DNA from: Thermoflexus hugenholtzii JAD2
GTDB lineage: Bacteria > Chloroflexota > Dehalococcoidia > UBA2979
DNA length: 64,000 nucleotides
Direction: 5' to 3'
NCBI GenBank assembly: GCA_945903275.1
Contig: CAMDNW010000009.1
Coordinates: forward strand, 3,036-67,035
Every line of letters starts with the position of its first letter. Position 1 is the first letter of the stretch. Under the pieces are notes generated by a model. It was not told the DNA's origin, ran no database searches, and saw nothing but the letters and a program-made list of their open reading frames with translations. Shown piece by piece: positions 16,941 through 50,639 of the stretch. Position numbers and translations under genes: made by a program.

Positions 16941-17521
16941 CTACCTCCGTCGCAGCACGCCAACAGCATCCAGAATCTCGCACAATACCGCTGCCGAGGT
17001 AAACCGCACGTCCTCCATACCCGTTGCGCGCGCCGCATCGGCGTTCGCCGGTGTGTCATCAATGAACAACACTTGCTTCGCTGAGACATCGAGGCGATCC
17101 AGCGCTATCTCGAACGCCTCCGCTGACGGCTTCAGTGCCCCAAGCTGGAACGAGAACAGCAGCGGCGGATTATCCGTGAGCACCGCAACCCGCACACGCG
17201 GCTCGATCGCGTGCACGACCGTAATCGTGTCGTCGTCCACCGTCAGCGCCGAAAGCATCACTGACTCGAACGCATCGAAGTCCAGCGCGACGCCAAGCCG
17301 CTCGTTCACAGTCTGCCGCCATTCGCTCGTGTACCGCCCCAGGTCGAAATCGCGCGTTAGCCCGGACTCCCACACCCGTGCCTGCACCTCGAGCTCCGGC
17401 AACCCGCTTCATCGCACAAGCGTCGCCAGCCGCGGCCCCGGCCCCGGCCCCGGCCCCGGCTCGAACCGGCACACCACGCCACCAAGGTCGAAGAGCACTA
17501 CCGAGACCATCCTGACCATTC
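16941..17521 (-). pseudogene. HAD-family hydrolase with an in-frame TGA and an internal (GGCCCC)n microsatellite
   Basis: MVRMVSVVLFDLGGVVCRFEP (HAD motif I), then GPGPGPGP encoded by the repeat, then RLATLVR, then TGA at 17409..17411, then SGLPELEV...FIDDTPANADAA (motif IV) in the same frame. The stop sits at a likely Trp position. Confidence 0.55.
17434..17460. repeat. (GGCCCC)4.5 hexanucleotide microsatellite inside the HAD pseudogene
   Basis: Direct tandem repeat visible in the sequence. Confidence 0.9.
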
Positions 17522-17547
17522 TGTCTTCGCCTCTCTACTCACGCATC

Positions 17548-17574
17548 GAGCGAGCCGGAACCGATCGCTCGCTA
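17548..17574. promoter_or_regulatory. Imperfect inverted repeat in the nurA/herA promoter region
   Basis: AGCGAGC-N11-GCTCGCT centred about 45 bp upstream of the nurA-like start. Candidate operator, speculative. Confidence 0.25.
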
Positions 17575-17606
17575 TACTTCCCACATCTCTCCCCGAGATA
17601 GACGCC

Positions 17607-18563
17607 ATGCCCCTCCGCCTCCTGCCCTGGGCGCCCGAGTACAGCACCGCCATGCAGTTCGACGCCGACGCCGCTGAGGACGACGCGCCCGCCGACACCA
17701 CCATCGAGGGGCCATGGCAGGCCGTCGCCCTCTCCGGCCCTGCGCCCGAGGCTGTCCAGATCATCGATGGCGTCCGCCGCGCCGAGATGCACGCGATGGA
17801 TGACGCCCCTGATGGCGGCGCGCTCTTCGGGCTGTTCGGCTCGCTCGCCGTCGGCGCGGTGCGCCTCGACCCCGGCAGCGCGCGCATCCTCGATGACTCG
17901 ATCCGCCTCGAACGTCGCTACCTCCAGACCGGCGGCGAGCCGCGCGCGCAGGTCATCCCCTGCGGCGCGGCCACGCTCCACTTCCGCCCCAAAATCCCCG
18001 ATCAGGCCAGCAGCGCCAACGACCTCGTCGCCGCACTCAACCGCGACATGCTCGACGAGGAAGCGCGCCTCGCCGAGACCCTCTCACACGACGAGTCTGT
18101 CCTGACCTTCGTCGACGGCCCGTTGCGCCTCCGCTCACCCGGCCAGCGCGTCGTCGGCTACATCAAGCGCATCCACCGCTGGTATCTCGACGCCGAGCAC
18201 CAGTTGCTGCTGCTCACGCTGAAGCCCGGCGAGCGCACGCCGCTCTTCCGCATCACCGAGGCCGGTCACGAGCGCACCTCGTGGTTCCTGCGTATCGCCG
18301 ACCTCAGCGCGCAGTTCCACCCGCTCGCGGGCCTGATGCGTCTCGAGGTGCCCGGCACCCTACCGATCCCGGACGCCATCCGCCTCGCCGACCAATCCGC
18401 ACGCGTGCTACCGAGGCTCGCCTCGTCTCCCGTGCGCGATCCGCGCTCACCACAAAATCTCATCCCGGTCGGCGCGCTCGAATCCGCGCTCACGCACCGC
18501 CTCGGCGACCGGCGCTGGATCGGGCGGCTCATCACCACTGCCGTAGGACGAGGCACCCTATGA
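17607..18563 (+). CDS. NurA-like 5'-3' nuclease (putative)
   Basis: 318 aa with an IDG motif (VQIIDGVRRAE) like NurA motif I. It is positioned immediately 5' of the HerA-like gene, with a stop/start overlap (ATGA). Confidence 0.5.
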   Translation: MPLRLLPWAPEYSTAMQFDADAAEDDAPADTTIEGPWQAVALSGPAPEAVQIIDGVRRAEMHAMDDAPDGGALFGLFGSLAVGAVRLDPGSARILDDSIRLERRYLQTGGEPRAQVIPCGAATLHFRPKIPDQASSANDLVAALNRDMLDEEARLAETLSHDESVLTFVDGPLRLRSPGQRVVGYIKRIHRWYLDAEHQLLLLTLKPGERTPLFRITEAGHERTSWFLRIADLSAQFHPLAGLMRLEVPGTLPIPDAIRLADQSARVLPRLASSPVRDPRSPQNLIPVGALESALTHRLGDRRWIGRLITTAVGRGTL

Positions 18564-20278
18564 ACGGACACACACCCATCAGCAACCTCAAGGACATCAC
18601 GGAGACCGGCCCCGCTGGCCTCGTGCTCGGCACCTCCGCCGAGGCGTCCACGCCGCTCTCCTTCTCGGTGCTCGTCGCGGACGATCGCTACCTGCAACTC
18701 GACGATGTCGTCCACCTCCGCTCGCCGCTCCCTGACGGCGAAGTCATCGATGTCTACGGCGTCGTCGACGAGGTGCGCGCAACGCACGAGGGCGTCTCCT
18801 TCGACTCCGATGTCCGCCTCGCCATCGACGGCATCCTGCCCGTGCAGCACGCCGTCGTCGCCCACGTCTCCGTCACCCGCGTCGAACCCGAAATCTTCGT
18901 CCCGCCCGTCCCCGGCACCGAAGTGCACCAAGCTCACGGCGCGGCCCGCGACGCGGCGCTCTTCTTCGACGGCATGCAGACGCGCGTCCCCTTCGGCCTC
19001 TCCCGCGCCGGCGAGACCATCTTCGCCAACATGGAGTTCCTCGATGGCACGCGCGGCGCGCACGTGAACATCTCCGGCATCTCCGGCATCGCAACCAAGA
19101 CCTCCTACGCGATGTTCCTGCTCCATGCGCTCTTCGAGGGCGGCGCGCTCGGTGTCGAGGCCGCCAACACCCGCTCGATCATTTTCAACGTGAAGGGCGA
19201 GGATCTGCTCTTCCTCGACAAGCCCAACGCCCGCCTCGACGACACACAGCGCACCCGCTACGCCACCATGGGCCTCCCCGCGCAGGCCTTCGGCTCCGTC
19301 GCCCTCTACGCTCCTGTCGCCCGAGGCGCACAGCCGATCCCCGACACCGGCTCGCGACTCGAAGGCGTCACCGGCTACTGCTGGACCCTCCGCGAGTTCT
19401 GCGCCGATCACTATCTGCGCTTCCTCTTCGCCGAGGCCGACGATGAGCGCTCGCAGATCGCCTACGTCGCCCAGTCCGTCGAGGCCCAACTCGCGATGGC
19501 TGCCCGCCTCTCGCTTCCCGTCACCAGCGCGACCGTCGAGATCGGCGGCGTCCGCTGCAACGACTTCCGTGAACTCGTGGAGCAGATCGCCGCCATGACC
19601 GACCCCGATCAGGGCGGCACGTGGGCCGGCCGCGCCGCCCCCGGCACCGTCCACGCCTTCCTCCGACGTCTGGAGGCCGCCGCCCCCCACGTCGGCCACC
19701 TCGTCCGCGGGGATGATTCCGAGGACATGGCCTCGCACCGGATCGACTGGCAGCGCGAGCAGGTCACCGTCGTCGATATCCACCGCCTACACGACCGCGC
19801 CAAACGCTTCGTCGTCGGCGCCGTGCTCAAGCGCATGTTCGAGGAGAAAGAGACCCGCGGTGCGGCCCGCCCGCTCGTATTCGTCGTGCTCGATGAACTG
19901 AACAAGTACGCCCCGCGCGAAGGCCACAGCCCCATCAAGGACGTGCTGCTCGACATCGCCGAGCGTGGCCGCTCCCTCGGCGTCGTGCTCATCGGCGCCC
20001 AGCAGACCGCCTCCGAGGTCGAGCCGCGCGTCGTCGCCAACTGCGCCTTCCGCGTCGTCGGCCGCCTCGACACCGCCGAGGCGCAACGCAACGAGTACGG
20101 CTTCCTCACCCCCGCCGCCCGCGCCCGCGCCAGCCTGCTCAAGCCCGGCACAATGATCCTGCACCAGCCAGAAATCCCCGTCCCGCTGCTCGTGCAGTTC
20201 CCCTTCCCCGCCTGGGCCACCCGTGCCTCCGAGGTCGCCGCCACCACCGACCCCTTCGCGCGCTTCGAGAATCGCTAA
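18560..20278 (+). CDS. HerA/DUF87-like hexameric ATPase (FtsK-HerA superfamily)
   Basis: N-terminal barrel region, a deviant P-loop NISGISGIATKTSY, and a C-terminal ...FVVLDELNKYAPREG...RSLGVVLIGAQQ...FRVVGRL block typical of HerA Walker B and arginine-finger regions. Confidence 0.65.
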   Translation: MNGHTPISNLKDITETGPAGLVLGTSAEASTPLSFSVLVADDRYLQLDDVVHLRSPLPDGEVIDVYGVVDEVRATHEGVSFDSDVRLAIDGILPVQHAVVAHVSVTRVEPEIFVPPVPGTEVHQAHGAARDAALFFDGMQTRVPFGLSRAGETIFANMEFLDGTRGAHVNISGISGIATKTSYAMFLLHALFEGGALGVEAANTRSIIFNVKGEDLLFLDKPNARLDDTQRTRYATMGLPAQAFGSVALYAPVARGAQPIPDTGSRLEGVTGYCWTLREFCADHYLRFLFAEADDERSQIAYVAQSVEAQLAMAARLSLPVTSATVEIGGVRCNDFRELVEQIAAMTDPDQGGTWAGRAAPGTVHAFLRRLEAAAPHVGHLVRGDDSEDMASHRIDWQREQVTVVDIHRLHDRAKRFVVGAVLKRMFEEKETRGAARPLVFVVLDELNKYAPREGHSPIKDVLLDIAERGRSLGVVLIGAQQTASEVEPRVVANCAFRVVGRLDTAEAQRNEYGFLTPAARARASLLKPGTMILHQPEIPVPLLVQFPFPAWATRASEVAATTDPFARFENR

Positions 20279-20281
20279 CCG

Positions 20282-21457
20282 ATGCGCATCCTCCACACCG
20301 CCGACTGGCACATTGGCCGCACCATCCGGGGCCGCAGCCGCGCCGCCGAGTTCGAGGCCGTCCTCGCCGAACTCGTTGGCATCGCGCGCGCCGAGCAAGT
20401 CGAGGCAATGCTCGTCTGCGGCGACATCTGGGAGACCGCCACCCCCACCCCCGAGGCCGACCGCCTGGTCTTCGAGGCGCTCCGTGAGTGCATCGGCCTT
20501 GGCATCCAGGTCGTGCTCATCGCCGGCAACCACGACTCGCCGCGCAAACTCGAGGCGCTCGGCATGTTGTCCGAACTGCTCGGCGTGCAGACTCAGTGGC
20601 GCGTGAACCGTCCCGAGGCTGGCGGCATCCTGAACATCGAGGGCCGCGAGCATGTCGCGCGCATCGCCGCCGTCCCGTGGCTGCGCGAGGGCGACTTCGT
20701 CGATGCCGCGCAACTCATGGGCCTCGAAGAAGACCGCTACGTCGCGTACGCCGACGGCGCGGGTGAGATCCATCGCGCCATGTGCACACCGTTCACGCCA
20801 GACACTGTGAACATCCTCGCCGGACACGTCTTCCTCAATGGTGCGCGCTACGCCGCGCGCGACGGCTCCGAGCGGCAACTGCATATCGGTCAGGCCTACG
20901 GTATCGCGCCCGCCGCCCTCCCACCGGCGCCGCAGTACATCGCGCTCGGCCACATCCACAGCCCGCAACGCATCACCGATGCCCCCGTCCCCACCGAGTA
21001 CGCCGGCTCCCTCCTCCAACTCGACTTCGGTGAGGCGCACGATGAGAAGCGCGTCGTGATCGTCGATGCTGTTCCCGGCCGCCCGCCGGACGTGCGCTCC
21101 ATCTCGCTCACTAAGGGCCGCCGCCTGCACCAACTGCACGACACGTTCGACAACGTGCTCGCGCAGGGTGCATCGCTTGGTAACGCGCACATTCGCGTCG
21201 TGCTGAAACTCGGCAAGCAGGAGCCCGGCATCGCGCAGCGCCTCCGCGATCAACTCCCCGGTGTCGTCGACGTGCAGCCTGAGTACCCCGATCTCATCGA
21301 GGCGATCGAGGAGCACCCATCGCTCGCCTCCCTCGCCCCCGAGGAGCAGTTCGTCCACTACTACCGAGCGCAGCACCAAGCCGACCCCGCACCCGAGACG
21401 ATCGTGCTCTTCCGCACCCTCCACGACGCCGCCGTCACCGCCGAGACGGAGGCGTAA
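20282..21457 (+). CDS. sbcD: Mre11/SbcD double-strand-break repair nuclease (calcineurin-like phosphoesterase)
   Basis: MRILHTADWHIGR..., phosphoesterase motifs (GDIWE, GNHD, GHxH). It starts 3 bp after the herA stop. Confidence 0.85.
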   Translation: MRILHTADWHIGRTIRGRSRAAEFEAVLAELVGIARAEQVEAMLVCGDIWETATPTPEADRLVFEALRECIGLGIQVVLIAGNHDSPRKLEALGMLSELLGVQTQWRVNRPEAGGILNIEGREHVARIAAVPWLREGDFVDAAQLMGLEEDRYVAYADGAGEIHRAMCTPFTPDTVNILAGHVFLNGARYAARDGSERQLHIGQAYGIAPAALPPAPQYIALGHIHSPQRITDAPVPTEYAGSLLQLDFGEAHDEKRVVIVDAVPGRPPDVRSISLTKGRRLHQLHDTFDNVLAQGASLGNAHIRVVLKLGKQEPGIAQRLRDQLPGVVDVQPEYPDLIEAIEEHPSLASLAPEEQFVHYYRAQHQADPAPETIVLFRTLHDAAVTAETEA

Positions 21458-21458
21458 C

Positions 21459-24400
21459 GTGCGCCCCATCCGCCTCGAACTGCGCGGCTTCACTTCGTTC
21501 CGCGACACCAGCGTCGTGGATTTCACCGGTCGCCGCCTCGTCGCCATCACCGGCCCCACCGGCTCCGGCAAGTCGTCGCTGCTCGATGCGATCACCTGGG
21601 CGCTCTACGGCGAGGTGCCGCGCGTTGGCAACCGCGCCGCGCAATTGATGACCCACGGCGCGGTGAGCATGAGCGCGCAGTTCGACTTCTCCGTCGGCCC
21701 CCAGCGCTACCGTGTCTCCCGCTCCATCGGCCGCAAGTCCGAGGCGCGCCTCGACCGCCTCTCGCCTGACGGCTTCACCGTCGTCCCCCTCGCCGATCGC
21801 GCCCGCGAAGCCACCGCTGAGGTGACACGCGTCCTCGGCCTCGACTACGAGACCTTCACCAAGACCGTACTGCTCCCGCAGGGCGCGTTCGATGCCTTCT
21901 TGCGCGGCGACCCCGGCCAGCGCCGCGACATCCTCACCAACCTCCTCGCCCTCGGCATCTACGAGCGCATGCGCGCCGATGCCCACGCCCGCTCCGTCGG
22001 CGCCCGTGCCGCCGCCGAGATGCAGCACGAGCAAGCCGGACGCCTCACCCTCGCCACCCCCGAGGCCGTCACCATCCTCGAGGCCGACCGCGCACAGTTC
22101 GAGACTCGTCTCCGCGAGGTCGCCGTACAACGCACCAACCTCGCCACGCTCACCGAGGCTGAGCGCGCCGCCGCCGACCGTGCCCGCATCGCCGCCGACG
22201 CCGCACAGGCCGCACGCGTGGCTGCCGAGGCTTTCGCGCACACCGAAGCCGCCGCCGCGCAGGCCGTGACCGCTGCCGAGGCCGCCGCGCAGCACCTTGC
22301 CGCCCTCACCTCCGAACGCGCCGCGCTCGGCTACGACGCCGAGGAGCACCGCCGCCTCGAACAGCAAGTCGCGCTCGTGCAGCAGCGCGCTGCCGCCCGC
22401 GACGATCTCTCGCGCGCGCAGCAGGCCGTCACCATCGCGCAGGATGCCGCCGATCGGGCGCGCGGTGACGCCGCTCGCGCTGCCGCAACTGCCGAGACAC
22501 AACGCGTGTCCTCGGAGTCCGCCACCACCGCACTCGCCGCCGCACGCACGCGCCTCGCCGCCGTCGCCGCCCCCGCACGCACCGCCGCCGCCGCCCTCGC
22601 CGGGCAGATCGCCACCACCGAGGCTGCTCGCGCGCAGTCCCTCCAGCGCAGCAACGAGTACGAGCAGAAGGCACGCGTGCTGCAAACGCTCGCGAAGCAA
22701 CTGATCGGCCTCCGCGTCGAGCACGAACGCGCGGACAGCACCCGCACCGCCGCCCTCGCCGCCGCCGCGACCGCCGAGGCACATCGCGTCCGCGCACACG
22801 ACGCCGAGACCGCCGCCGCCGCAGCGCTCACCGAGGCGACCGCGCACCGCGAGGCCGCCCAGCGCGAGCACGCCGCCGCCGCACTCCGTCGCGGCCTGAA
22901 GGTTGGCGAACCCTGCCCGGTCTGCGGCGAGCCCATCACCTCACTCGCCGATCGCGCGGCGCCTGACCTCGATGCCACCGATGCCGCACTCGCCGCCGCG
23001 CAGCGCGCGCTCGATGCCGCCCGCGCCGGGCAGCAGCAGCGCGCCAGCGCCGCCGCCGCCGCACACGCACACGCCGAGGCCGCCGGCGCCGCGCTCACCG
23101 CCGTCGACACGAAGATCATCGTGCTCGACGCGCAATGCGCCGAGGCCGCCGTGACCCGCGACGGCATCGATCACGCCGCCAAGCGCGCCTCCACCGCCGC
23201 CGCAGCCGAGGGCCAGCGCGCCACCGCCGCCGAGGAACAAATCGCCGCCGCCCGCACCCTCGAACGCGATCTGCAATTGCTGCTCGTACAGGTGCCTGCG
23301 GACATCGAGACCATCGAGGCTGACCCGCCCTCCGGCGCGCTCACCGCCGCCCTCCGCGTGGCGCTCGATGCCCACGCGGAGGGCGGCGGTGCCGCACGCA
23401 TCGCCGAAACCGCCACACGCACCGCTGACGAGGCCGCGCGAACCACCACCACAGCAGCAACACACAGCGACGCACTCACCGCCCAAGCCACGCGCGCCGC
23501 CGTCGAAGCGCAGTCACGCCTCGATGCCCTCGGCGCGCAGGACGCCGCCGAGGCGGACGCACTGCTCGCATCGCTCGCTGCCATGACGCAGCGCGCACAA
23601 CGCGCCACTGCACTCGATGAGGCCGCGCGCGCCGCCGGGCAGCAGCAAGCCTTCGCCACCGCGCTCACCGAGGAGCGCCGCGCCGCCGTCGCCCGTGCCA
23701 CCGCCGCCGCCACGACCGCGACCGCCAATCACGGGTCCACTGAAGCCGAGGCTGCTCGCGCGCGCGATGCCTACCGCGAACACTGGCGCGCCTTCGGCCT
23801 CGCCGAGCCGCCGTCCGCCGATGACCTCACCGCCACCGCCGGGAAACTCGAGGCGGATGAGCGCGACACCGACCGCTCGCTCACCCGCACCATCGGCGCC
23901 ATCGAACTCGCGCATAAAGAACGCGCCGAGAGCGAACGCCTCCGCGCCGAAGCTGCGGCCAACACCCGCAACGCGGAGGTCGCCGCCGGTCTTGAACAGG
24001 AACTGCACCGCAACCGCTTCGTCGCCTACGTCCAGCGCGAGGCCATGCACGTCCTCGCCACCGAGGCCGGCGAGCGCATGGAACACCTCTCCCGTGGCCG
24101 CTACCGCCTCGCCGCCGACGGCGACGAGTTCGTCATCGTGGATCGATTCAACGGCGACGAGCAGCGCTCCGTGAAGACGCTCTCTGGCGGCGAAACCTTC
24201 CTCGCCAGCCTCGCCCTCGCCCTCGCGCTCGCCGAACGCCTCCCACAACTGTCCGGCCACGGCGGCGCGCTCAGCCTCGAATCACTCTTCCTCGACGAAG
24301 GCTTCGGCACCCTCGACGCGGACGCTCTCGATGTCGCCATCGAGGCGCTCGAACTGCTCTCCAGCGGCGACCGCATGATCGGCGTCATCTCCCACGTCCC

Positions 24401-24473
24401 CGCCATCGCCGACCGCCTCCCCGACCGCATCGAGGTCATCAAGAACGGCGCAACGAGCACGGTTAGGAGTTAA
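21459..24473 (+). CDS. sbcC: Rad50/SbcC SMC-like ATPase with a zinc hook
   Basis: GTG start 1 bp after the sbcD stop. Walker A GPTGSGKSSLLDAI, a long Ala/Glu/Arg-rich coiled coil, a CPVCGEP zinc hook mid-protein, and C-terminal LSGGETFLASLALAL...LFLDEGFGTLD (signature motif and Walker B). Confidence 0.85.
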   Translation: MRPIRLELRGFTSFRDTSVVDFTGRRLVAITGPTGSGKSSLLDAITWALYGEVPRVGNRAAQLMTHGAVSMSAQFDFSVGPQRYRVSRSIGRKSEARLDRLSPDGFTVVPLADRAREATAEVTRVLGLDYETFTKTVLLPQGAFDAFLRGDPGQRRDILTNLLALGIYERMRADAHARSVGARAAAEMQHEQAGRLTLATPEAVTILEADRAQFETRLREVAVQRTNLATLTEAERAAADRARIAADAAQAARVAAEAFAHTEAAAAQAVTAAEAAAQHLAALTSERAALGYDAEEHRRLEQQVALVQQRAAARDDLSRAQQAVTIAQDAADRARGDAARAAATAETQRVSSESATTALAAARTRLAAVAAPARTAAAALAGQIATTEAARAQSLQRSNEYEQKARVLQTLAKQLIGLRVEHERADSTRTAALAAAATAEAHRVRAHDAETAAAAALTEATAHREAAQREHAAAALRRGLKVGEPCPVCGEPITSLADRAAPDLDATDAALAAAQRALDAARAGQQQRASAAAAAHAHAEAAGAALTAVDTKIIVLDAQCAEAAVTRDGIDHAAKRASTAAAAEGQRATAAEEQIAAARTLERDLQLLLVQVPADIETIEADPPSGALTAALRVALDAHAEGGGAARIAETATRTADEAARTTTTAATHSDALTAQATRAAVEAQSRLDALGAQDAAEADALLASLAAMTQRAQRATALDEAARAAGQQQAFATALTEERRAAVARATAAATTATANHGSTEAEAARARDAYREHWRAFGLAEPPSADDLTATAGKLEADERDTDRSLTRTIGAIELAHKERAESERLRAEAAANTRNAEVAAGLEQELHRNRFVAYVQREAMHVLATEAGERMEHLSRGRYRLAADGDEFVIVDRFNGDEQRSVKTLSGGETFLASLALALALAERLPQLSGHGGALSLESLFLDEGFGTLDADALDVAIEALELLSSGDRMIGVISHVPAIADRLPDRIEVIKNGATSTVRS

Positions 24474-25722: not shown

Positions 25723-26130
25723 CTACCCCCGCCGTCCCGTCACCATCGTCGCCATCAGCGACACCACCGAGATTACCAGCGACCCCAGCACAGCCGGCCA
25801 GAACCCATCAACGTGGAAGTTGAGACCGAGGCGTCCCGCCGCCCATGCGCTCACCATCAGCATCGCGGCGTTGATCACAATCGCAAACAGCCCAAACGTC
25901 AGCACAATCAGGCACGCCGAGAACAGCGCCGCCACCGGCTTCAGCAACATGTTCACGATCGCGAAGATCGCCGTCCCCGCCACCAGCGACTGCCAGTCGT
26001 TGATACGAACCCCCGGCACGATCGCCGAGGCGAGAAACAGTCCCGCCGCATTGATCGCCGCGCGGAACAGCATTCCGCTCAACGATCCCCCGCCCGGTGA
26101 CATCCGGTACGAATAGCCCACGGATCTCAT
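25723..26130 (-). CDS. 4-TMS holin-like membrane protein (PF04020, YvlD-like family)
   Basis: 135 aa with four predicted TM helices and conserved ...NAAMLMVSAWAAGRLGLNFHVDGFWPAVLGSLVIS... Confidence 0.65.
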   Translation of the reverse strand: MRSVGYSYRMSPGGGSLSGMLFRAAINAAGLFLASAIVPGVRINDWQSLVAGTAIFAIVNMLLKPVAALFSACLIVLTFGLFAIVINAAMLMVSAWAAGRLGLNFHVDGFWPAVLGSLVISVVSLMATMVTGRRG

Positions 26131-42389: not shown

Positions 42390-42465
42390 GCGCCGGTAGC
42401 TCAGGGGATAGAGCATCAGTCTTCGGAACTGAGGGTCGGGGGTTCGAATCCCTCCCGGCGCACCA
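42390..42465 (+). tRNA. tRNA-Arg (anticodon TCG) with encoded CCA
   Basis: Cloverleaf folded by hand: acceptor GCGCCGG/CCGGCGC, D arm GCTC...GAGC, anticodon stem TCAGT/ACTGA with loop CTTCGGA, T arm GGGGG-TTCGAAT-CCCTC. Confidence 0.8.
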
Positions 42466-42659
42466 ACAATTCAGCCACTTCGGACTTGGGTGACTAAGTA
42501 CCCGGGACGCCAATGGCCCTAACTTGGCCCTAATTCTCTCAGCTTGAGACGATGGCCAGCAGCGCATCGTGGCAACAATAGGTCCGAACGCACATCGGCA
42601 TCACTGTTCAGAAACGACGAAATCGTAACGGTACCGTTCCGGGTGGCAGCGTCCCTGGC

Positions 42660-43070
42660 GTGACTGTCGGTCGAGCTGGCGGACGAGGGGCCACATCTGT
42701 GGATCTTCGACGACTAGCAGGTGTGGGGCACGCACTCGCTAGTACGCCTGGCATGGGATCACTCGTCGCGTGGTACGGCGCAGGCCTGACGATTAACAAT
42801 ACCCAGTTCTCGATCGAAGCCGATGCTGCGCGAATTGCAAAACCGGTACTCATTCTCCACGGAGACCTTGACCAGCCTGGACTGACGTCATTCGCGCGTA
42901 AATTCGCAAGCGCTCGCAAGTCCGCAGGGAAGCAAGTAGAGCTCGTGATCTATCCCGGAGTTGGGCACGCCTGGGATCAGCCTCGCTCTCCGATCTACGT
43001 TTACGACGCGAATGCGACTGCCGATGCTCGATCACGAACGATTGCATTTTTTACTGCAGCTGCCCGATGA
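42660..43070 (+). pseudogene. Dienelactone-hydrolase-family alpha/beta hydrolase, C-terminal fragment only
   Basis: ...PVLILHGDLDQPG...VELVIYPGVGHAWDQ...ADARSRTIAFF corresponds to the C-terminal third of DLH. The N-terminal catalytic half is absent. It sits at the tRNA-proximal edge of the low-GC island. Confidence 0.45.
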
Positions 43071-43765
43071 AGTAGACGAGGTTCCGTCAGAACTCAGTGC
43101 TCGCCGCCGAGTTCGGCCAGGAACGAGAGGAGAAGCAGCCCCGTTTCGAATCTGAGACCAAGTGCCGGGAAGACCAGATCAGGCGCCTTCTAGGCCCTGG
43201 CCACTGAGTTCTGACAGAACTCATCCATTAGCGACCAGTCTGGCCGAACCTACGTCCGGAAGCGGACCGCCATCGAAGCAGTTGAGGCAAGTCACTTGGG
43301 AGAAGTCGCCAGTCAGGTTCCGGCGGCTTCTAGTCATGCACGGCGAGACCCCGCCGCCATCGCGATGGAGCTTGTCGACTCCCTGCTCGCCTTTCGGTTC
43401 CGGAGCAGGCAACCCTGTGAGAACAGACACTTCTCTACGGCTGGCCTGCCGGACATGCGAACAGTATGAGCGGGCGTCAAAGCCCGGACAGTCACATATG
43501 CCCTTCAGCGAACGGTCGGTTCGTAGCATCAACTCAACCGCGTGGGGCCGCGATGTATGACTCATGGAAGGAATTACGACGACTTTCTCCCACGTCGTGA
43601 TCAGCGGGGTAGGCCTGACAGTCGATGGGATACCCAGCATTGCCTCAAAGAAGCGCTTGAACAAATCCATCTCCTTCGGTGTGTCGAAACACCGACGCGT
43701 GGAATGCCGCGGAACCACTAGGGGTAGTGGTTCCGCGGCGGCGGCAATGACGAGTGACCGAGTAG

Positions 43766-46309
43766 CTAACTGACGATAGGTGCAGTCTCGTCCGCCCACA
43801 CAATGCCGGTTTCCCGAAACAACCGGATGGACGGCGCATCGTAGCTGAGCTCTTCCAGAATCGCGTCGGTCTGCTCGCCTGCCACCACGCCCGGACCGTA
43901 CCGGCCTGGAGTCTCGGAGAACGTAACGAGGGGGCCCCAGCGCTGGTAATCACCGAGTATTCGATGCTTCGCGCGGATCGCGAACGCGTTCTCCTTGATC
44001 TGCTCGGAGCGCCAGAAAAACTGTCCTGCACTCTGGAAATCGTCTGCCCGGACGCAGCCGACTCCTGCCTCCAGCAACGCGTGCTCCCATTCATCCGCAC
44101 TACGCTGTGCGAAGACCGGCGTGAGGAACGTCACAAGATCCTGTGCGTGGCTCGCGCGGCTTTCTCGATCCTTGAACCGACTGTCATTGCGCAGGTCATC
44201 CCGTTGGAGCGCAGAGCACAGGCACGCCCACATGTCGTCCGACTCCGCGCTGAGGCATACCCAACTGTCCTTCGCTCGATACAGCCGCTGCAGCGGTCCG
44301 ATTCCCATGAGGGATGAATCGAGCGTCGGACGTGCTGGCTTCCCGGCATAGGAGAGGAAATCGTCCGCGTTTGCGTACGCGTTCGCCCCAAGCATACTCA
44401 CGAACACTTCCTGCCCTGCACCGGTTCGCCGTCGGGCGTGGAGCGCCAGCATCGCCGCTGTTGCGACGACAACTGACGTGTTGGGGTCGGGGTTTGACTC
44501 GTTCGCGCGGTAGAACCGTCGCGCAGCCTCCCGCAACGCATTGATCGATGATAGATCACCTTGAGGCCAGCCTTCACCGACCTGCATCAGCGCGCCACCG
44601 TCAACTGCCCCAGGGATGGGATGCGCTGCAGGACGAGGAGCACCCTCGCCGTCAGGCCCGTAGCCGCTCACGCTCAGCCAGATGATGTCCGGACGGATCG
44701 CCTTCGCCTGCTCATACCCGATCCCCAATCGTTCGGGCACACCTGGCCGGTAGTTGTGGACGATCATGTCGGCCTGCACGACGAGGCGGCGCACGATCTC
44801 CTGACCAGCCTCGGTCTTCAGATCGATGCAGATGCTTTCTTTGCTTGCTGTCGTCTTCGAGGAGCCAAGGTATGCCGTTAAGCCCGCACCGCCCATGCCC
44901 CGCATCGGGTCGCCACCATTCGTTGGCTCGACCTTGATGACCCGAGCGCCGAGGTCTCCAAGCAGCGAGGCTCCGAGCGGAGCGGCGATGATCGTTGCAA
45001 ACTCGAGCACGGTCAGCCCAGCAAGTGGGGCGGCCCGATCGCCGGTCACCGTTCGTGTCGGCTGAGGAGCCGGGGGCTCGCCAAGCACCTCGGCGGTGTG
45101 CTCTCCTACGCGCGGTGCTGGCCGGCCGATTCGCGCCGGAGTATCGCGCAGAAGCGCGAGGGGGCCGAGCTGACGGACCACTCCTAGATCTGGGTCGGCC
45201 GCCTCAATGACTTCGCCGTTCGCCACCATGTCCGCGTGGTGTAGCCCGGTCTGTGCGGTGCCAACAAGGTCCGCCGCGACGTTGCCGCTGGCCTTGAACT
45301 CGTCCATCAGTTCGTCAGCCGTACACTCTTGTGCCGCGAGCAGCATCGCGTTCCGAATTTCCTCGCGTGCTTCCTCGGAGACGCCATTGGGCGCTCCCGC
45401 GTAGCGAGGATCAGCGAGGATTTTGTCGGCGAGGCCCAACGACACGATCGATGCCTGAAAGAGGTGCTCCAGTAGGTTGGCGAGCTGAATCCAGCGGCCA
45501 TCGGACGACATGATCGGCTGGTACCCGAGCGTGGGCTGCGCATCCGGGGAGTAGTACCGCGCAAACAGTTCGCTCTGTGCCTTCTCAGGGAAGCGCTCAA
45601 GCATCTGCTCGCGAACAAGGTTGTTGAGGTCATACGGGAACATTCCCTGCAGCAGGCTCGTCTCAACAAGTTGCCCGAACCCGCTGCGCTCGCGAACCTC
45701 GAGTGCGGCCAGAATCCCTGTCGTCGCCGACTGTGCTGCGGCGTGCGTCCCGACCTGCACCGCCTCGAAGCCGGGGCCTTCGCGCCGGTCGATGAACGCC
45801 ATCGCCCACATTCTGGCTGACTTCGCGGCGACGAGCGTTTCGTCCGCCGGGTACTGCGCATACGGCCCACGCGGACCCCAGCCAGTGACTGAACAATAAA
45901 CGAGCCCTGGATTCGCGCCCTTCAGACTCTCGTAATCGAGTCCAAATTCCTGCGCTTCGCCCGGACGGAAGGACGCCACCACGACATCCGCCGACAGCGC
46001 GAGCTGTCTCGCCGCGTTCTTACCCTCGGTGGCGCTGAGATCGAGTACGACGCTCCGTTTGCCTCGAAGCCACATTGGCGCGGCCGCATGCGCGCGAATC
46101 GGGTCGCCGCCCGGGCCCTCGATCTTGACGACATCGGCTCCGAAGTCGGCCAACACCATCGTCGCGATCTCTGCTGCACCGCCCGATCCGATCTGGATAA
46201 TTCGCAGGTCGTCGCATGGCCCAGTCAATCGGGTTGCCCTTTCTCTATTCGCCAGATGAAAGCTGGCGGAGTCAGCGGGACCCACGAAGACGCGGGTCGA
46301 GCACATCAC
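43766..46309 (-). CDS. Fused tandem family-III CoA-transferase (two CaiB/BaiF domains in one 847-aa polypeptide)
   Basis: Two repeats of the GPxxGxRVLDL...ADxGAxVIKVE N-terminal signature (LRIIQIGSGGAAEIATMVLADFGADVVKIE and LTVLEFATIIAAPLGASLLGDLGARVIKVE). Confidence 0.8.
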   Translation of the reverse strand: MMCSTRVFVGPADSASFHLANRERATRLTGPCDDLRIIQIGSGGAAEIATMVLADFGADVVKIEGPGGDPIRAHAAAPMWLRGKRSVVLDLSATEGKNAARQLALSADVVVASFRPGEAQEFGLDYESLKGANPGLVYCSVTGWGPRGPYAQYPADETLVAAKSARMWAMAFIDRREGPGFEAVQVGTHAAAQSATTGILAALEVRERSGFGQLVETSLLQGMFPYDLNNLVREQMLERFPEKAQSELFARYYSPDAQPTLGYQPIMSSDGRWIQLANLLEHLFQASIVSLGLADKILADPRYAGAPNGVSEEAREEIRNAMLLAAQECTADELMDEFKASGNVAADLVGTAQTGLHHADMVANGEVIEAADPDLGVVRQLGPLALLRDTPARIGRPAPRVGEHTAEVLGEPPAPQPTRTVTGDRAAPLAGLTVLEFATIIAAPLGASLLGDLGARVIKVEPTNGGDPMRGMGGAGLTAYLGSSKTTASKESICIDLKTEAGQEIVRRLVVQADMIVHNYRPGVPERLGIGYEQAKAIRPDIIWLSVSGYGPDGEGAPRPAAHPIPGAVDGGALMQVGEGWPQGDLSSINALREAARRFYRANESNPDPNTSVVVATAAMLALHARRRTGAGQEVFVSMLGANAYANADDFLSYAGKPARPTLDSSLMGIGPLQRLYRAKDSWVCLSAESDDMWACLCSALQRDDLRNDSRFKDRESRASHAQDLVTFLTPVFAQRSADEWEHALLEAGVGCVRADDFQSAGQFFWRSEQIKENAFAIRAKHRILGDYQRWGPLVTFSETPGRYGPGVVAGEQTDAILEELSYDAPSIRLFRETGIVWADETAPIVS

Positions 46310-47210
46310 GGATCGTATCCCCGAGCATATTGAACGACAGCACCGTCACGCTGATCGCGAGTCCGGGCAGGATAGCGAGCCACGGTGCCGACTCCATGTA
46401 CTGCCGCCCGGAGGTGGAGAGCATCAGCCCCCATGATGGGTTGGGAGGCTGAGTCCCCAGTCCCAGAAAGCTGAGGCCGGACTCTGCAAGGATGGCCCCC
46501 CCGAGCGAACCGGAAGCAAGAATGAGGATCGGAGCGACAATATTCGGCAGGACGTGACGCGCCATGATGCGGCGCGGGGTCGCCCCGAGCGCGTGGGCCG
46601 CCTCGACGTAGACGTTCGCCTTCACCGCCAGCACCGCGCTTCTCACAACGCGCGACGACGAAGGAATCGTAACGATCGCGATGGCGAGCAGTGCGTTCGC
46701 GGTGTTCGCCCCGAGGACAGATACGATTGCCATCGCAAGCACAATGGCAGGAATAGCCAGCATGCCGTCGACCGCCCGCTGTACGATCAAGTCGAACGTT
46801 CCGCCGAGGAACCCACTCACGAGCCCGAGCACGGTGCCGCTGACCGTCCCGAGCCCCACTGCGATCAGTCCGACGTACAAGGAGATGCGCGCACCCCAAA
46901 TGATCCGGGATAGCTGATCACGACCGATGTTGTCCGTGCCGAAGGGATACTTCCAACTCGGGCTGAGCAGCTTCTCGCGCGACGTGGCGATGGGGTCATA
47001 TGGCGCGATGATTGGTGCGAACACCGCGAGCAGCACCACGATAAGGATCACCGTTCCGAAGATGGCACCGACGGGATGCGTGACCACTCGGCGCAGGGCG
47101 TCCAGAGTGGGTGGAAGCGACCTGCGCGCTGCGATGCGCGCAGTGGCACTCGTGGCAGACACTGTACTTGCGGTACCTGCGCCGTCTCCGCCGCGAACCA
47201 TGTTCGCCAA
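46272..47210 (-). CDS. ABC transporter permease (DppC/OppC-like)
   Basis: 6 TM helices and an EAA-like loop. Confidence 0.85.
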   Translation of the reverse strand: MANMVRGGDGAGTASTVSATSATARIAARRSLPPTLDALRRVVTHPVGAIFGTVILIVVLLAVFAPIIAPYDPIATSREKLLSPSWKYPFGTDNIGRDQLSRIIWGARISLYVGLIAVGLGTVSGTVLGLVSGFLGGTFDLIVQRAVDGMLAIPAIVLAMAIVSVLGANTANALLAIAIVTIPSSSRVVRSAVLAVKANVYVEAAHALGATPRRIMARHVLPNIVAPILILASGSLGGAILAESGLSFLGLGTQPPNPSWGLMLSTSGRQYMESAPWLAILPGLAISVTVLSFNMLGDTIRDVLDPRLRGSR

Positions 47211-47231
47211 ACTCTGGCCCCTTTCCTGCGC

Positions 47232-48182
47232 CTAGTGCAGCCGAATCCGAGGATCGAGAAGTCCGTATGACATGTCGATAGTCAGGTTCGCCAGCACGAA
47301 CAGCGTTGCCATGACCATCACTGAGCCCTGCACTACCGGGTAGTCCCGGTGGGTGACGGCATCAAGGAGCAGCCGCCCCTGTCCGGGCAGCGAGAAGATC
47401 TGCTCGACAATGACCAACCCACCGATGAGCCCGGTGAGTTGTGCGCCGATGATCGTGATCACCGGGATCATGCTGTTCCGCAGCGCGTGGCGGATGACGA
47501 CGTCTATCTCACGCAGGCCTTTTGCGCGAGCCGTACGGACGTAGTCCTCCCTCAACACGTCGAGCATGGCGGACCGGGTCATGCGCGCGCTCACGGCGGA
47601 CAGGCGGTAACCAACTATCAACGCCGGGAAGATCATCGACTGGAAGTTCTTGACCGGATCAGTAAGCGGCGAATACCAGCCAAACTCCGGCAACCATCCG
47701 AGATATTTTGACAGAACCAGTAGCAGGATAGTGGCTAGCCAGAAGTCGGGCGCGGAGAGCCCGATGACCGAGAACAGGCGGCTGCCGAAATCGATCACCG
47801 TATCCTGACGCACAGCAGCGATGACTCCGAGAGGAATCGCTAGCATGAACGCGATCGACACTGCCAGTATGGAAATCTCAAGCGACACCTTCATCCGCTG
47901 CAGGATGGTCGGCAGGACGGGTTCGCGAGTCCATAGCGACGTGCCGAGGTCACCCTGGACTAGGTGCCCAAGCCAATCCGCGTATTGCGCGAGAAACGGC
48001 TTGTCGATGCCGAGTTCGATACGCATTTGGGCAAGTGTCTCCGGGCTGACGTAGCCGCCCTCTGCGACGAGCGCCATCACAGCATCCCCGGGGATGAGCC
48101 GGACTAACGAAAAGATGAACAGCGAGACAAACAGGAGTGACGGGACCGCGAGCAGCAGTCGCCGAGCGATATAAGGACCCAC
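47232..48182 (-). CDS. ABC transporter permease (DppB/OppB-like)
   Basis: MGPYIARRLLLAVPSLLFVSLFIFSLVRLIPGD... is a classic DppB start. Confidence 0.85.
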   Translation of the reverse strand: MGPYIARRLLLAVPSLLFVSLFIFSLVRLIPGDAVMALVAEGGYVSPETLAQMRIELGIDKPFLAQYADWLGHLVQGDLGTSLWTREPVLPTILQRMKVSLEISILAVSIAFMLAIPLGVIAAVRQDTVIDFGSRLFSVIGLSAPDFWLATILLLVLSKYLGWLPEFGWYSPLTDPVKNFQSMIFPALIVGYRLSAVSARMTRSAMLDVLREDYVRTARAKGLREIDVVIRHALRNSMIPVITIIGAQLTGLIGGLVIVEQIFSLPGQGRLLLDAVTHRDYPVVQGSVMVMATLFVLANLTIDMSYGLLDPRIRLH

Positions 48183-48256
48183 CGGTCCCCCTTCCGCTGC
48201 TCAAGCACAGGACAGGAGGCAGCGGATCAGCCGCTATCTCCTGTCCTGTGCCCGTA

Positions 48257-50023
48257 TTACTTGCTTGTCCAAATGTCTGGCATGAACTGCGAGGCGTTGT
48301 ATCCGAACACGCTTGGGCCAAGTCCGTCATTGCCGACGATCCACTGCATCCCGTGAATCCACGGCTGCCAGACCGTGAAGTTTACGGAGTTCGTGTGCTC
48401 CACGCGGTACATCTTGTCGAGCATACGATCCCAGATCTTACGCAGAATTTCGCGCCGTTTCCGCGGATCGAGCTCGACGCTCTGCTGCTCCGACCAAGTG
48501 TCGATCTCGGGGTCCTTGATATAGAAGAGATTGCTCGCAGCGCCTGACTGCAGCTGCGCCTTGAAGTAGTTGTCTGCCTGTGTGCCGTGGGGATCCCACG
48601 CCTGAATGGCATCTTCGTACTGAGCTTTCGCCAACTGGGCGTTGAACTGCACGTAGTCGATCTGACGTGCATTGACTTGGAATCCCGCCTTGCGGAATTG
48701 ATCAAGGATCATCTCGTTCTGAGCGGTCAAGTACTGGTTTGTATACAACCAGTCGAATTTCAGGTTCTCCTGCCCGGCTGCCTGCAGTAGTTTCTTGGAT
48801 TCGGCGAGGTCAAACCGCCACCACTTACCGAGATCCTTGGCAACCGGCTCCTTGTCGAGCACGTGGTTCCACGGCATCACCGGCAGTGTGCTCGATAGCC
48901 CGTCGTACAGAGTGGCGTTGATGGTGTCGCGGTCGAGCGCGAGGCTGAAAGCCTGACGGACGCGCTCGTCCTTCCACTTGGCCTGAGTCATGTTGAACGC
49001 GGTGAAGAACACCGACTTGGTATACAGGGACTGCGTAACGTTGGAACCAGGCACCGACTCCTGAATTGCCTTGATGTCTTTCGGCGTGCGTGCGCCCGCC
49101 CGTATGATTTGGCCTGCGCGGAACGCGGCAACCTGCGCAGCAGTGTCGGGAATGATGCGGTACTCGAAGCCGTCAAGATGCGGAGCAGGCCCCCAGTAGT
49201 CGGGGTTTCGCACATAGCGGACCGCTTGTCCAGCCACATGCTCTTTCAGGATCATCGGCCCCGTGCCGATCGCAACTTTATCGAGCGTTTTGTTGTCGAC
49301 CAGTTCTTTCGGCTGAATTGGATTGTTCTGCTCAGCCAGCGGCACAATGAAGTCCGGTGACGGTCGCTTCAGCGTTACCTTGACCGTCAAAGGGTTCACT
49401 GCTTCGATCTTGGCCATCGCATCGAAATTGGATTGCCAGATGCCGGTGGACGCGTACCGCTGGTACGAGTACACGACGTCCTCCGCGGTGAACGCGCGGC
49501 CGTTCAGCGGGGCCACGTTGATCCATTTGGCATTCGGCCGCAGTTTGAAGGTGTACGTCAGACCGTCTGGTGTGACCTCCCATGACTGTGCCAAGCCCAC
49601 TTCGATATCCTTCGAGGGCGCTCCTGGCGTGCCTCCGAGCTCACTGTCCTTTGTCGTCATTTTTCGACGCAGCAGTGTCTCGTAGGTGGTACCGGCTGGC
49701 GTCAGATTGCCGGTCGCGCCGCTCTTGCTCACATCCATTGATCCGATGTCAGCGGCCACGGCGACCACCACGGACCCGCCTCGCTTCGGCTGGGCACTGG
49801 ACGCGGCAACCGTATAATTGAACGGGCGCTTCGCCGCTTCCTCTTTGGTAGCTGCCTGCCCTCCACCCGTGTCAGCTGTTGCCCCCGGTGCTGCGGAGGG
49901 GGCACCCTTCGTCCCGCCGCATCCTACGAGAGCCGCCGCGCTCATGCCGCCGACGAACGCGAGTGACCCTCGCACCAAACTCCGACGACTCACAGACTGC
50001 GATATCAACCGATGGTTCGCCAT
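48257..50023 (-). CDS. ABC transporter substrate-binding lipoprotein, family 5 (peptide/nickel/opine type), Tat signal
   Basis: SRRSLVRGSLAFVGGMSAAALVGCGG (twin-arginine signal plus lipobox), 588 aa, SBP_bac_5-like. Confidence 0.85.
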   Translation of the reverse strand: MANHRLISQSVSRRSLVRGSLAFVGGMSAAALVGCGGTKGAPSAAPGATADTGGGQAATKEEAAKRPFNYTVAASSAQPKRGGSVVVAVAADIGSMDVSKSGATGNLTPAGTTYETLLRRKMTTKDSELGGTPGAPSKDIEVGLAQSWEVTPDGLTYTFKLRPNAKWINVAPLNGRAFTAEDVVYSYQRYASTGIWQSNFDAMAKIEAVNPLTVKVTLKRPSPDFIVPLAEQNNPIQPKELVDNKTLDKVAIGTGPMILKEHVAGQAVRYVRNPDYWGPAPHLDGFEYRIIPDTAAQVAAFRAGQIIRAGARTPKDIKAIQESVPGSNVTQSLYTKSVFFTAFNMTQAKWKDERVRQAFSLALDRDTINATLYDGLSSTLPVMPWNHVLDKEPVAKDLGKWWRFDLAESKKLLQAAGQENLKFDWLYTNQYLTAQNEMILDQFRKAGFQVNARQIDYVQFNAQLAKAQYEDAIQAWDPHGTQADNYFKAQLQSGAASNLFYIKDPEIDTWSEQQSVELDPRKRREILRKIWDRMLDKMYRVEHTNSVNFTVWQPWIHGMQWIVGNDGLGPSVFGYNASQFMPDIWTSK

Positions 50024-50639
50024 ATGCTCATGCCTCCCTTGGGCTTAGGAACGACCCCAACTGCTGTCTCTCGCGATGGAGTTCGTACAGATTGATTTGC
50101 CTGCGAGACCCACTCTCTTCAGAACGACCTTCCCGCAGTTCATTCCGTTTATTTCGGTGCGATGGCTACCAATCGAGCCTTACAGCACCGGACTGCCAAA
50201 ATTGACGCGAAACCAAACTTTCGATTTCGAACCCTTCGACACTGCTAGGCAACAGCGTCGACATCAACGCCTATTGCATGCACGGCACTGCGTTGAAAAC
50301 CTATGCACGTGGCGGATATTACGTGCGTAGGCTTCACGATTGCAACTGCCTATAAGTCTGCCAAAATTAAAATCTTTGCCGCGTTTCTCGCACAGAACGT
50401 GATTGGGATCGGTGGACGGGTGCATGGCACACCGAGTGGCATCACGAATCGCCGTGTCCGACAATCCTAATGAGCGGAAGTGCCTGATCCGGCTCCTCGC
50501 AGGAGAACTCTTCCTCGCACATGTTCTCGTGCGCCTACGAGCGCTACCAATTCTGGCAGGAACAAGCCCGACTCCGGGGCTCATCGACTGAGTAGCGTTC
50601 CATCAACAGAACGTCATCCGCCCCGCCGGTATTCGCCGC

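Follow-up and report, generated by a model that had tools for sequence, protein, structure and literature searches.

A bacterial-type nurA–herA–sbcD–sbcC locus in Thermoflexus hugenholtzii and its probable role in DNA-end processing

Introduction

The NurA–HerA pair of Deinococcus radiodurans (PDB 7F6D, 7WRW, 7WRX) is encoded by an operon in which nurA lies directly upstream of herA, and the bacterial NurA–HerA interface is ionic, not hydrophobic as in archaea (PMC9960219). NurA–HerA homologues have been noted in several bacterial phyla in a review (PMC8708640). In this work, we describe a four-gene locus, nurA–herA–sbcD–sbcC, at positions 17607-24473 of a 64,000-nt stretch of Thermoflexus hugenholtzii JAD2 (contig CAMDNW010000009.1 of assembly GCA_945903275.1); the whole stretch is hereafter called the window. 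The NurA and HerA encoded here belong to the same protein clade as the D. radiodurans pair. That pair, however, is not found beside sbcCD, whereas in the window sbcD and sbcC follow 3 bp and 1 bp on. We consider it probable (roughly 0.78) that the locus is a resident bacterial operon encoding a two-module machine for the processing of double-strand DNA ends.

The gene order nurA–hepA–sbcD–sbcC has been reported for Oceanithermus profundus, with a bacterial-type HerA and with sbcD and sbcC downstream as in the window; it comes from one genome, of the Deinococcota and thus of a phylum other than that of the Chloroflexota-like window genome, and was read there as a secondary recruitment of SbcCD (Blesa et al. 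2017, PMC5448004). That report is the only earlier mention of a linked bacterial cassette that we found, although the older literature may hold others, and we found no broad survey of bacterial linkage, though older work may touch on it.

In archaea such as Sulfolobus and Pyrococcus, the herA–mre11–rad50–nurA genes fill the same four roles; they are transcribed together, Mre11 interacts with HerA, and the products act in 5′ resection. The similarity of the window proteins to their archaeal counterparts is nevertheless marginal for HerA and NurA and, for SbcD and SbcC, clearly lower than to bacterial proteins. Escherichia coli SbcCD (PDB 6S6V) is the top structural-sequence match for the third and fourth open reading frames (ORF3 and ORF4), with which they share the zinc hook and all motifs of the nuclease and of the ABC ATPase, but neither herA nor nurA is linked to it, and RecBCD carries out long-range resection in that organism. 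The HerA proteins of defence systems (HerA-SIR2, HerA-DUF4297; HerA_antiphage, PADLOC) belong to the FtsK–HerA superfamily and likewise combine a hexameric ATPase with a nuclease effector, although only the region from Walker B to the arginine aligns (E 1e-3 to 1e-7), and the partner nuclease and the genomic context differ.

Taken by itself, the window locus is a further example of a protein system already known. What the survey adds is that the linked cassette is widespread, occurring in about nine phyla, and that it comes in two phylogenetically coherent gene orders.

Results

HerA and NurA are of the D. radiodurans type

On sequence evidence, the product of ORF2 is closely related over its full length to D. 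radiodurans HerA (DrHerA), comprising a HAS barrel, a RecA-like domain and a helical bundle. The PDB match to 7f6d_B covers HerA residues 17-559 with an E value of 4.7e-141, which becomes 7e-189 in a profile search. The Walker A motif is deviant (GISGIATKTS, residues 173-182). An earlier note on this DNA, made without database searches, had already pointed to a deviant P-loop in a HerA-like ATPase; the feature is real, and it is common to DrHerA, the shared form being GISG[IV]ATKTS. The catalytic Asp, the Walker B motif and the pore arginines are likewise identical in the two proteins. In the alignment, K180/T181, D215 (catalytic), D445/E446 (Walker B) and the pore arginines R453 and R510 of the window protein correspond to K175/T176, D220, D487/E488, R495 and R552 of DrHerA, whose roles, including the contacts of K175/T176 with ADP and Mg2+, have been described (PMC9960219). 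All of these ATPase and translocation residues are invariant in an alignment of relatives.

The earlier note had looked to PF01935 (HerA/DUF87) for confirmation of this protein, but HerA matched no Pfam family at E ≤ 0.01, PF01935 included, and precomputed Pfam domains are recorded for none of the 120 listed HerA relatives. The clade lies outside the current Pfam model, which points to a gap in the model and is not evidence against HerA identity. Because Pfam gave no match, identity was settled by the PDB sequence searches, in which 7F6D upholds it. Scores on the archaeal HerA models were far below their cutoffs, at 14.5 bits for NF040819 (cutoff 970) and 13.9 bits for NF040937 (cutoff 800), and archaeal HerA structures yielded no PDB match at E ≤ 1, even with a profile.

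NurA (ORF1), proposed earlier from one IDG motif and synteny, could be placed firmly. It matches PF09376 above the curated threshold (cutoff 21 bits) with 33.7 bits and an E value of 3.6e-8, copies of the identical protein on other contigs are already recorded under that family, and the PDB matches are D. radiodurans NurA (7f6d_H, E 6.5e-31) and T. maritima TM1739 (5e-9). Archaeal NurA structures gave no PDB match at E ≤ 1, the matches being to bacterial structures only. The acidic residues D54 (IDG), E152 and D170 (DGP), which by comparison with the family are putative metal ligands, align with those of D. radiodurans NurA and TM1739 and are kept in 64-65 of 65 aligned orthologues. Moreover, the C-terminal PQNLIP..ALE motif, shared with D. 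radiodurans NurA together with the D/E/D core, is essentially invariant among the 65 orthologues, and a conserved W8 lies in the N-terminal pin-like region. The window protein is the shorter of the two, with 318 aa against 369 aa in D. radiodurans.

SbcD and SbcC are of bacterial type

The calcineurin-fold Mre11/SbcD and the zinc-hook Rad50/SbcC that the earlier note had named are both borne out. SbcD scores 159.4 bits on TIGR00619 (cutoff 77.65) and contains all five phosphoesterase motifs, DWH, GD, GNHD, GH and GHIH. The bacterial equivalog sbcd_Bac gives 180 bits as compared with at most 51 bits for archaeal Mre11 models, and the PDB matches run in the same direction (E. coli SbcD, 4e-27; P. 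furiosus Mre11, 8e-9). SbcC scores 313.4 bits on TIGR00618, below the curated cutoff of 478.5, and this is still by far its top-scoring family; the bacterial SbcC models reach 163-225 bits as against at most 91 bits for archaeal Rad50 models. In the PDB, SbcC finds its strongest match in E. coli SbcC (2.3e-51), and the match to P. furiosus Rad50 is far weaker (1e-6).

The split ABC head of SbcC is complete, with Walker A (GPTGSGKS, residues 32-39), Q-loop (LLPQG, 138-142), signature (LSGGE, 908-912), Walker B (LFLDEGFG, 943-950) and H-loop (ISHV, 977-980), and the zinc hook CPVC occupies residues 486-489 (window 22914-22925). Alanine makes up 32.5% of the coiled coil, and this alanine-rich segment is the reason for the GC peak (0.75) and the AT skew peak (0.30) at window 22000-24000.

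The four-gene linkage is widespread and occurs in two orders

The HerA family comprises more than 8000 clusters at E ≤ 1e-10, and its nearest members are found in metagenome-assembled genomes of Chloroflexota/Dehalococcoidia. In one genome per GTDB species, at least 566 HerA relatives were found, and linkage was surveyed by tblastn with the window's four proteins in the 80 best-scoring of these HerA loci. The 80 loci span about nine phyla, including Chloroflexota, Acidobacteriota, Actinomycetota (with many Acidimicrobiia and Nitriliruptoria), Gemmatimonadota, Proteobacteria, Myxococcota, Planctomycetota and Bacteroidota, with a mean HerA identity across phyla of 62%. All four genes lie within 10.5 kb or less in 58 of them. 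A further 11 are cut by contig ends and are consistent with linkage as far as their sequence goes, 8 are too short or ambiguous, and in only 3 (L005, L009 and L040) is sbcCD absent despite ample flanks. Linkage is thus kept in 58 of the 61 fully informative loci.

The order nurA–herA–sbcD–sbcC, that of the window, occurs in 25 loci and herA–sbcD–sbcC–nurA in 33; the latter presumably matches the Sulfolobus order. In a neighbour-joining tree of HerA, the herA-first loci form one clade and the nurA-first loci fill the rest. Since gene order tracks the HerA tree, it is an old and stable trait of two subtypes. Furthermore, the pairwise distances of HerA, NurA and SbcD correlate with one another (r = 0.87-0.92), suggesting that the cassette has been inherited as a unit.

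Some loci carry genes between herA and sbcD, encoding a DsbA-like thioredoxin, mannosyl-3-phosphoglycerate synthase, GNAT, MerR and an EndoU/PrsW protein. A conserved fifth component at this position was considered and rejected, as the inserted genes are unrelated and most of them lie on the opposite strand. In one sub-clade (L053, L074 and probably L059), an opposite-strand two-gene insert splits herA from sbcD–sbcC–nurA, and the cassette is not dispersed; its two products in L053 and L074 are a DsbA-like double thioredoxin protein and a mannosyl-3-phosphoglycerate synthase.

The genes are tightly packed

Junctions and open reading frames were read directly from the sequence of the window, and the features of the locus are listed in Table 1. 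The nurA and herA genes overlap in an ATGA (18560-18563), herA and sbcD are separated by a 3-bp gap (TAA-ccg-ATG, 20276-20284), and sbcD and sbcC by a 1-bp gap (TAA-c-GTG, 21455-21461), with a GGAGG a few bases upstream of the GTG. The four co-directional genes and the three junctions are as the earlier note gave them. With genes packed so tightly, co-transcription and translational coupling would be expected. Independent gene calls on metagenome contigs with identical proteins give the same four genes with the same boundaries, and the coding-strand GC content at codon position 3 is about 0.85. The adjacency of the four homologues in 58 of the 80 related loci places them far beyond chance open reading frames.

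Table 1. Features of the nurA–herA–sbcD–sbcC locus, in window coordinates
Feature	Position	Strand	Length	Description
candidate -10 element	17573..17578	+		TATACT, putative, read from sequence; 29 nt upstream of the nurA ATG
nurA	17607..18563	+	318 aa	bacterial-type NurA nuclease, RNase H-like fold
herA	18560..20278	+	572 aa	bacterial-type HerA hexameric dsDNA translocase
sbcD	20282..21457	+	391 aa	Mre11-family nuclease
sbcC	21459..24473	+	1004 aa	Rad50-family SMC-like ATPase, GTG start

Upstream region

The TATACT hexamer is abutted by an inverted repeat (17547-17573) of 7 bp, with a spacer of 11 nt, that can be read in two alternative registers; together, the two could be a putative operator and -10 element. 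The element GCTATACT upstream of the window nurA recurs upstream of nurA in four related Dehalococcoidia loci (L001-L004), one of which, L001, has its own palindrome, GGAACCCCGCGGTTCC. Only GCTATACT is shared in an alignment of the upstream regions across related loci, and a convincing conserved operator was not found in it. A hexamer tandem repeat, (CGGCCC)4, lies at 17433-17456, between an upstream HAD-like gene and nurA.

The cassette resembles its resident neighbours

Genes for a DEAD-box helicase, GroEL, PurU, a truncated globin, a UbiE-type methyltransferase, a GFO-family oxidoreductase and a two-component system surround the cassette, and no defence-island markers occur among the flanking genes. 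In L001-L004, which come from four Dehalococcoidia genomes with HerA 71-74% identical to that of the window, the DEAD helicase, PurU, globin and UbiE genes are kept upstream, and the downstream holin-like, GFO and hyp294 genes are likewise syntenic. Globin and UbiE still flank the cassette at 62% HerA identity. The holin-like gene, a small minus-strand gene at 25723-26130 with a Phage_holin_4_2 domain, stands just downstream of sbcC and in the same position in L001-L004; since this position is kept, the gene encodes a resident membrane protein and is not a prophage remnant.

The composition of the four genes agrees with that of their surroundings. Their GC skew at codon position 3 (-0.36 to -0.51) matches that of resident plus-strand genes, and their GC content matches resident genes, unlike the segment at 43.7-50 kb, which lacks the strand bias of the window and exemplifies less ameliorated DNA in this region.

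Across the window (1-64000), the GC skew of the plus strand stays near -0.2 in almost all 2-kb bins. Plus-strand genes have a codon position 3 skew of -0.36 to -0.66 and minus-strand genes outside 43.7-50 kb one of about +0.1 to +0.44. This very strong asymmetry is a mutational bias that is tied to the strand, does not depend on gene orientation and clearly exceeds that of most bacteria. The segment at 42390-50100 adjoins a tRNA-Arg(TCG) gene (42390-42465), has a lower GC content (0.59-0.64) and a codon position 3 skew near zero, and holds genes for an Opp/Dpp-type ABC transporter and a family III CoA-transferase. Compared with the rest of the window, the segment has probably been acquired more recently or been inverted.

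Relatives on plasmids and viral contigs

A relative is carried by 6 of 72,556 plasmids. On the linear plasmid NZ_CP134205 of Streptomyces sp. BB1-1-1 (L093), a herA–sbcD–sbcC–nurA cassette at 420631-428200 adjoins Wadjet-like TIGR02680/TIGR02678/DUF2397 genes and an ImmA/IrrE peptidase gene. Its products appear in RefSeq as 'ATP-binding protein', 'exonuclease SbcCD subunit D', 'SMC family ATPase' and 'hypothetical protein', the last being NurA (E 4.6e-32). Putative viral contigs of IMG/VR (L085-L091) encode distant HerA relatives of 26-28% identity, and just upstream of the herA relative, five contigs, L085-L088 and L090, show a weak match to NurA (24-38% identity). The sbcCD genes were found in none of L085-L091. 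The viral-contig HerA is a different HerA subfamily.

Discussion

Each of the four proteins is an intact member of its family and retains the catalytic motifs. By analogy with the structure and biochemistry of D. radiodurans NurA–HerA (PMC9960219) and with the reconstitution of archaeal Mre11–Rad50 and HerA–NurA (PMC3326311), SbcCD, the Mre11–Rad50 module, would recognise DNA ends and hairpins and clip or unblock them. A HerA hexamer and a NurA dimer would load on the end after SbcCD, and HerA would pump duplex DNA into NurA. There, a pin-like element of NurA may split the strands, and NurA would degrade the 5′ strand as the DNA is translocated, so that a 3′ tail is left for RecA. Given the intact motifs, the coupled genes and the conserved linkage, a HerA–NurA-assisted resection complex, one of the possibilities raised in the earlier note, is the best explanation of the locus.

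Several points weigh against this interpretation. No sigma-70 site with both hexamers turned up in a scan for consensus promoters, and a consensus terminator scan found only opposite-strand, intragenic sites at chance frequency and no operon terminator. The 80 loci are a best-scoring subset, so that the frequency of linkage may be lower in more distant clades, and the correlation of HerA, NurA and SbcD distances would also arise from simple co-inheritance. Inactivation of nurA and herA in Thermus reportedly leads to UV resistance, going by the title of the paper concerned. The nurA–herA genes are unlinked from sbcCD in D. radiodurans (PMC4663267) and in T. thermophilus (PMC5448004), and a functional link between SbcCD and NurA–HerA has been posed as a question in the D. 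radiodurans literature (PMC4663267). The roles in vivo are ambiguous as well, since the HerA of D. radiodurans binds to RecJ and stimulates it (PMC4663267), and Thermus HepA mutants are defective in competence and in transjugation/DNA donation (PMC5448004).

The RecJ interaction, the Thermus phenotypes and the lack of linkage in Deinococcus and Thermus would equally suit a NurA–HerA pair acting apart from SbcCD, with RecJ or in DNA transfer, competence or proliferation, with linkage reflecting shared regulation only. We regard such independent action as unlikely, because the linkage persists in nearly all fully informative loci, in two gene orders and at deep divergence, the junctions overlap or lie 1-3 bp apart, the distances of HerA, NurA and SbcD co-vary, and archaeal Mre11 physically binds HerA (PMC2288612). 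The cassette might instead be an anti-phage or anti-plasmid module, in which a HerA–nuclease pair and an SMC-like ATPase–nuclease destroy foreign linear DNA; Blackwood et al. speculated that HerA–NurA might destroy foreign DNA too, like RecBCD (PMC3326311), weak PADLOC matches exist (HerA models, E 1e-6 to 1e-7; mad8, 2.8e-10; mad3 for SbcC, 1.4e-28), and the single Streptomyces linear-plasmid copy adjoins Wadjet-like genes. The HerA-model matches, however, are confined to the C-terminal ~100 residues. Anti-phage HerA (NF042943/NF042944) was rejected at 24.7 bits against a cutoff of 800, with residues 401-507 alone aligned, and membership in the PADLOC HerA families was rejected likewise (E 1e-6 to 1e-4, C-terminal part only). 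The defence reading of the earlier note also fails on the neighbourhood, which is housekeeping in character (GroEL, PurU, globin, UbiE, oxidoreductase, two-component system), free of defence markers beside the cassette and, unlike variable defence islands, syntenic among relatives. Viral contigs hold only 24-28% identical relatives, plasmids carrying any relative are very rare, and a mean HerA identity of 62% across phyla is atypical of fast-evolving defence genes; a defence role is thus improbable.

Recent lateral transfer of the cluster from thermophilic archaea, the implication drawn in the earlier note from its 'archaeal-style' operon, appears highly improbable. The four-gene linkage is indeed the classical thermophilic-archaeal arrangement (PMC2288612, PMC4663267), and Thermus HepA was considered archaeal in origin by Blesa et al. 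(PMC5448004). The likeness, however, holds for the linkage and not for the type of protein: HerA and NurA are of the D. radiodurans type, HerA finding its match there at 4.7e-141 while archaeal HerA is absent at E ≤ 1 and its models stay at about 14 bits, NurA matches bacterial structures only, and SbcD and SbcC score much higher on bacterial than on archaeal models and structures. Against import stand also the GC content and codon position 3 skew, which are those of resident genes and unlike the 43.7-50 kb segment, and the flanking synteny, which survives at 62-74% HerA identity. The earlier note had itself named common linkage as a finding that would speak against its view, and linkage is common, in 58 of the 80 loci across about nine phyla. 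We therefore favour a resident DNA-end-processing operon that is chromosomal, long resident and bacterial in type, a recent archaeal import and a defence island both being unlikely.

Conserved linkage, co-divergence and tight coupling provide genomic evidence for cooperation of SbcCD with NurA–HerA in bacteria. The survey also points to an annotation gap: the HerA clade is missed by Pfam, and in RefSeq HerA is named 'ATP-binding protein', NurA 'hypothetical protein' and SbcC 'SMC family ATPase', which together make the cassette invisible in routine annotation. Cultivable carriers of the cassette, suited to a four-protein reconstitution, are found in Oceanithermus, Streptomyces and Nonomuraea.

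Tentatively, and with considerable doubt, one may go further and suppose that the linked cassette, with its two ancient gene-order subtypes, is both ancestral and typical for this system in bacteria and is the main long-range resection machine in lineages such as Chloroflexota, Acidimicrobiia and Acidobacteriota, where it would replace RecBCD/AddAB/AdnAB. If this were true, 'archaeal-type' resection would be a widespread bacterial pathway, and the unlinked systems of Deinococcus and Thermus would be the exception.

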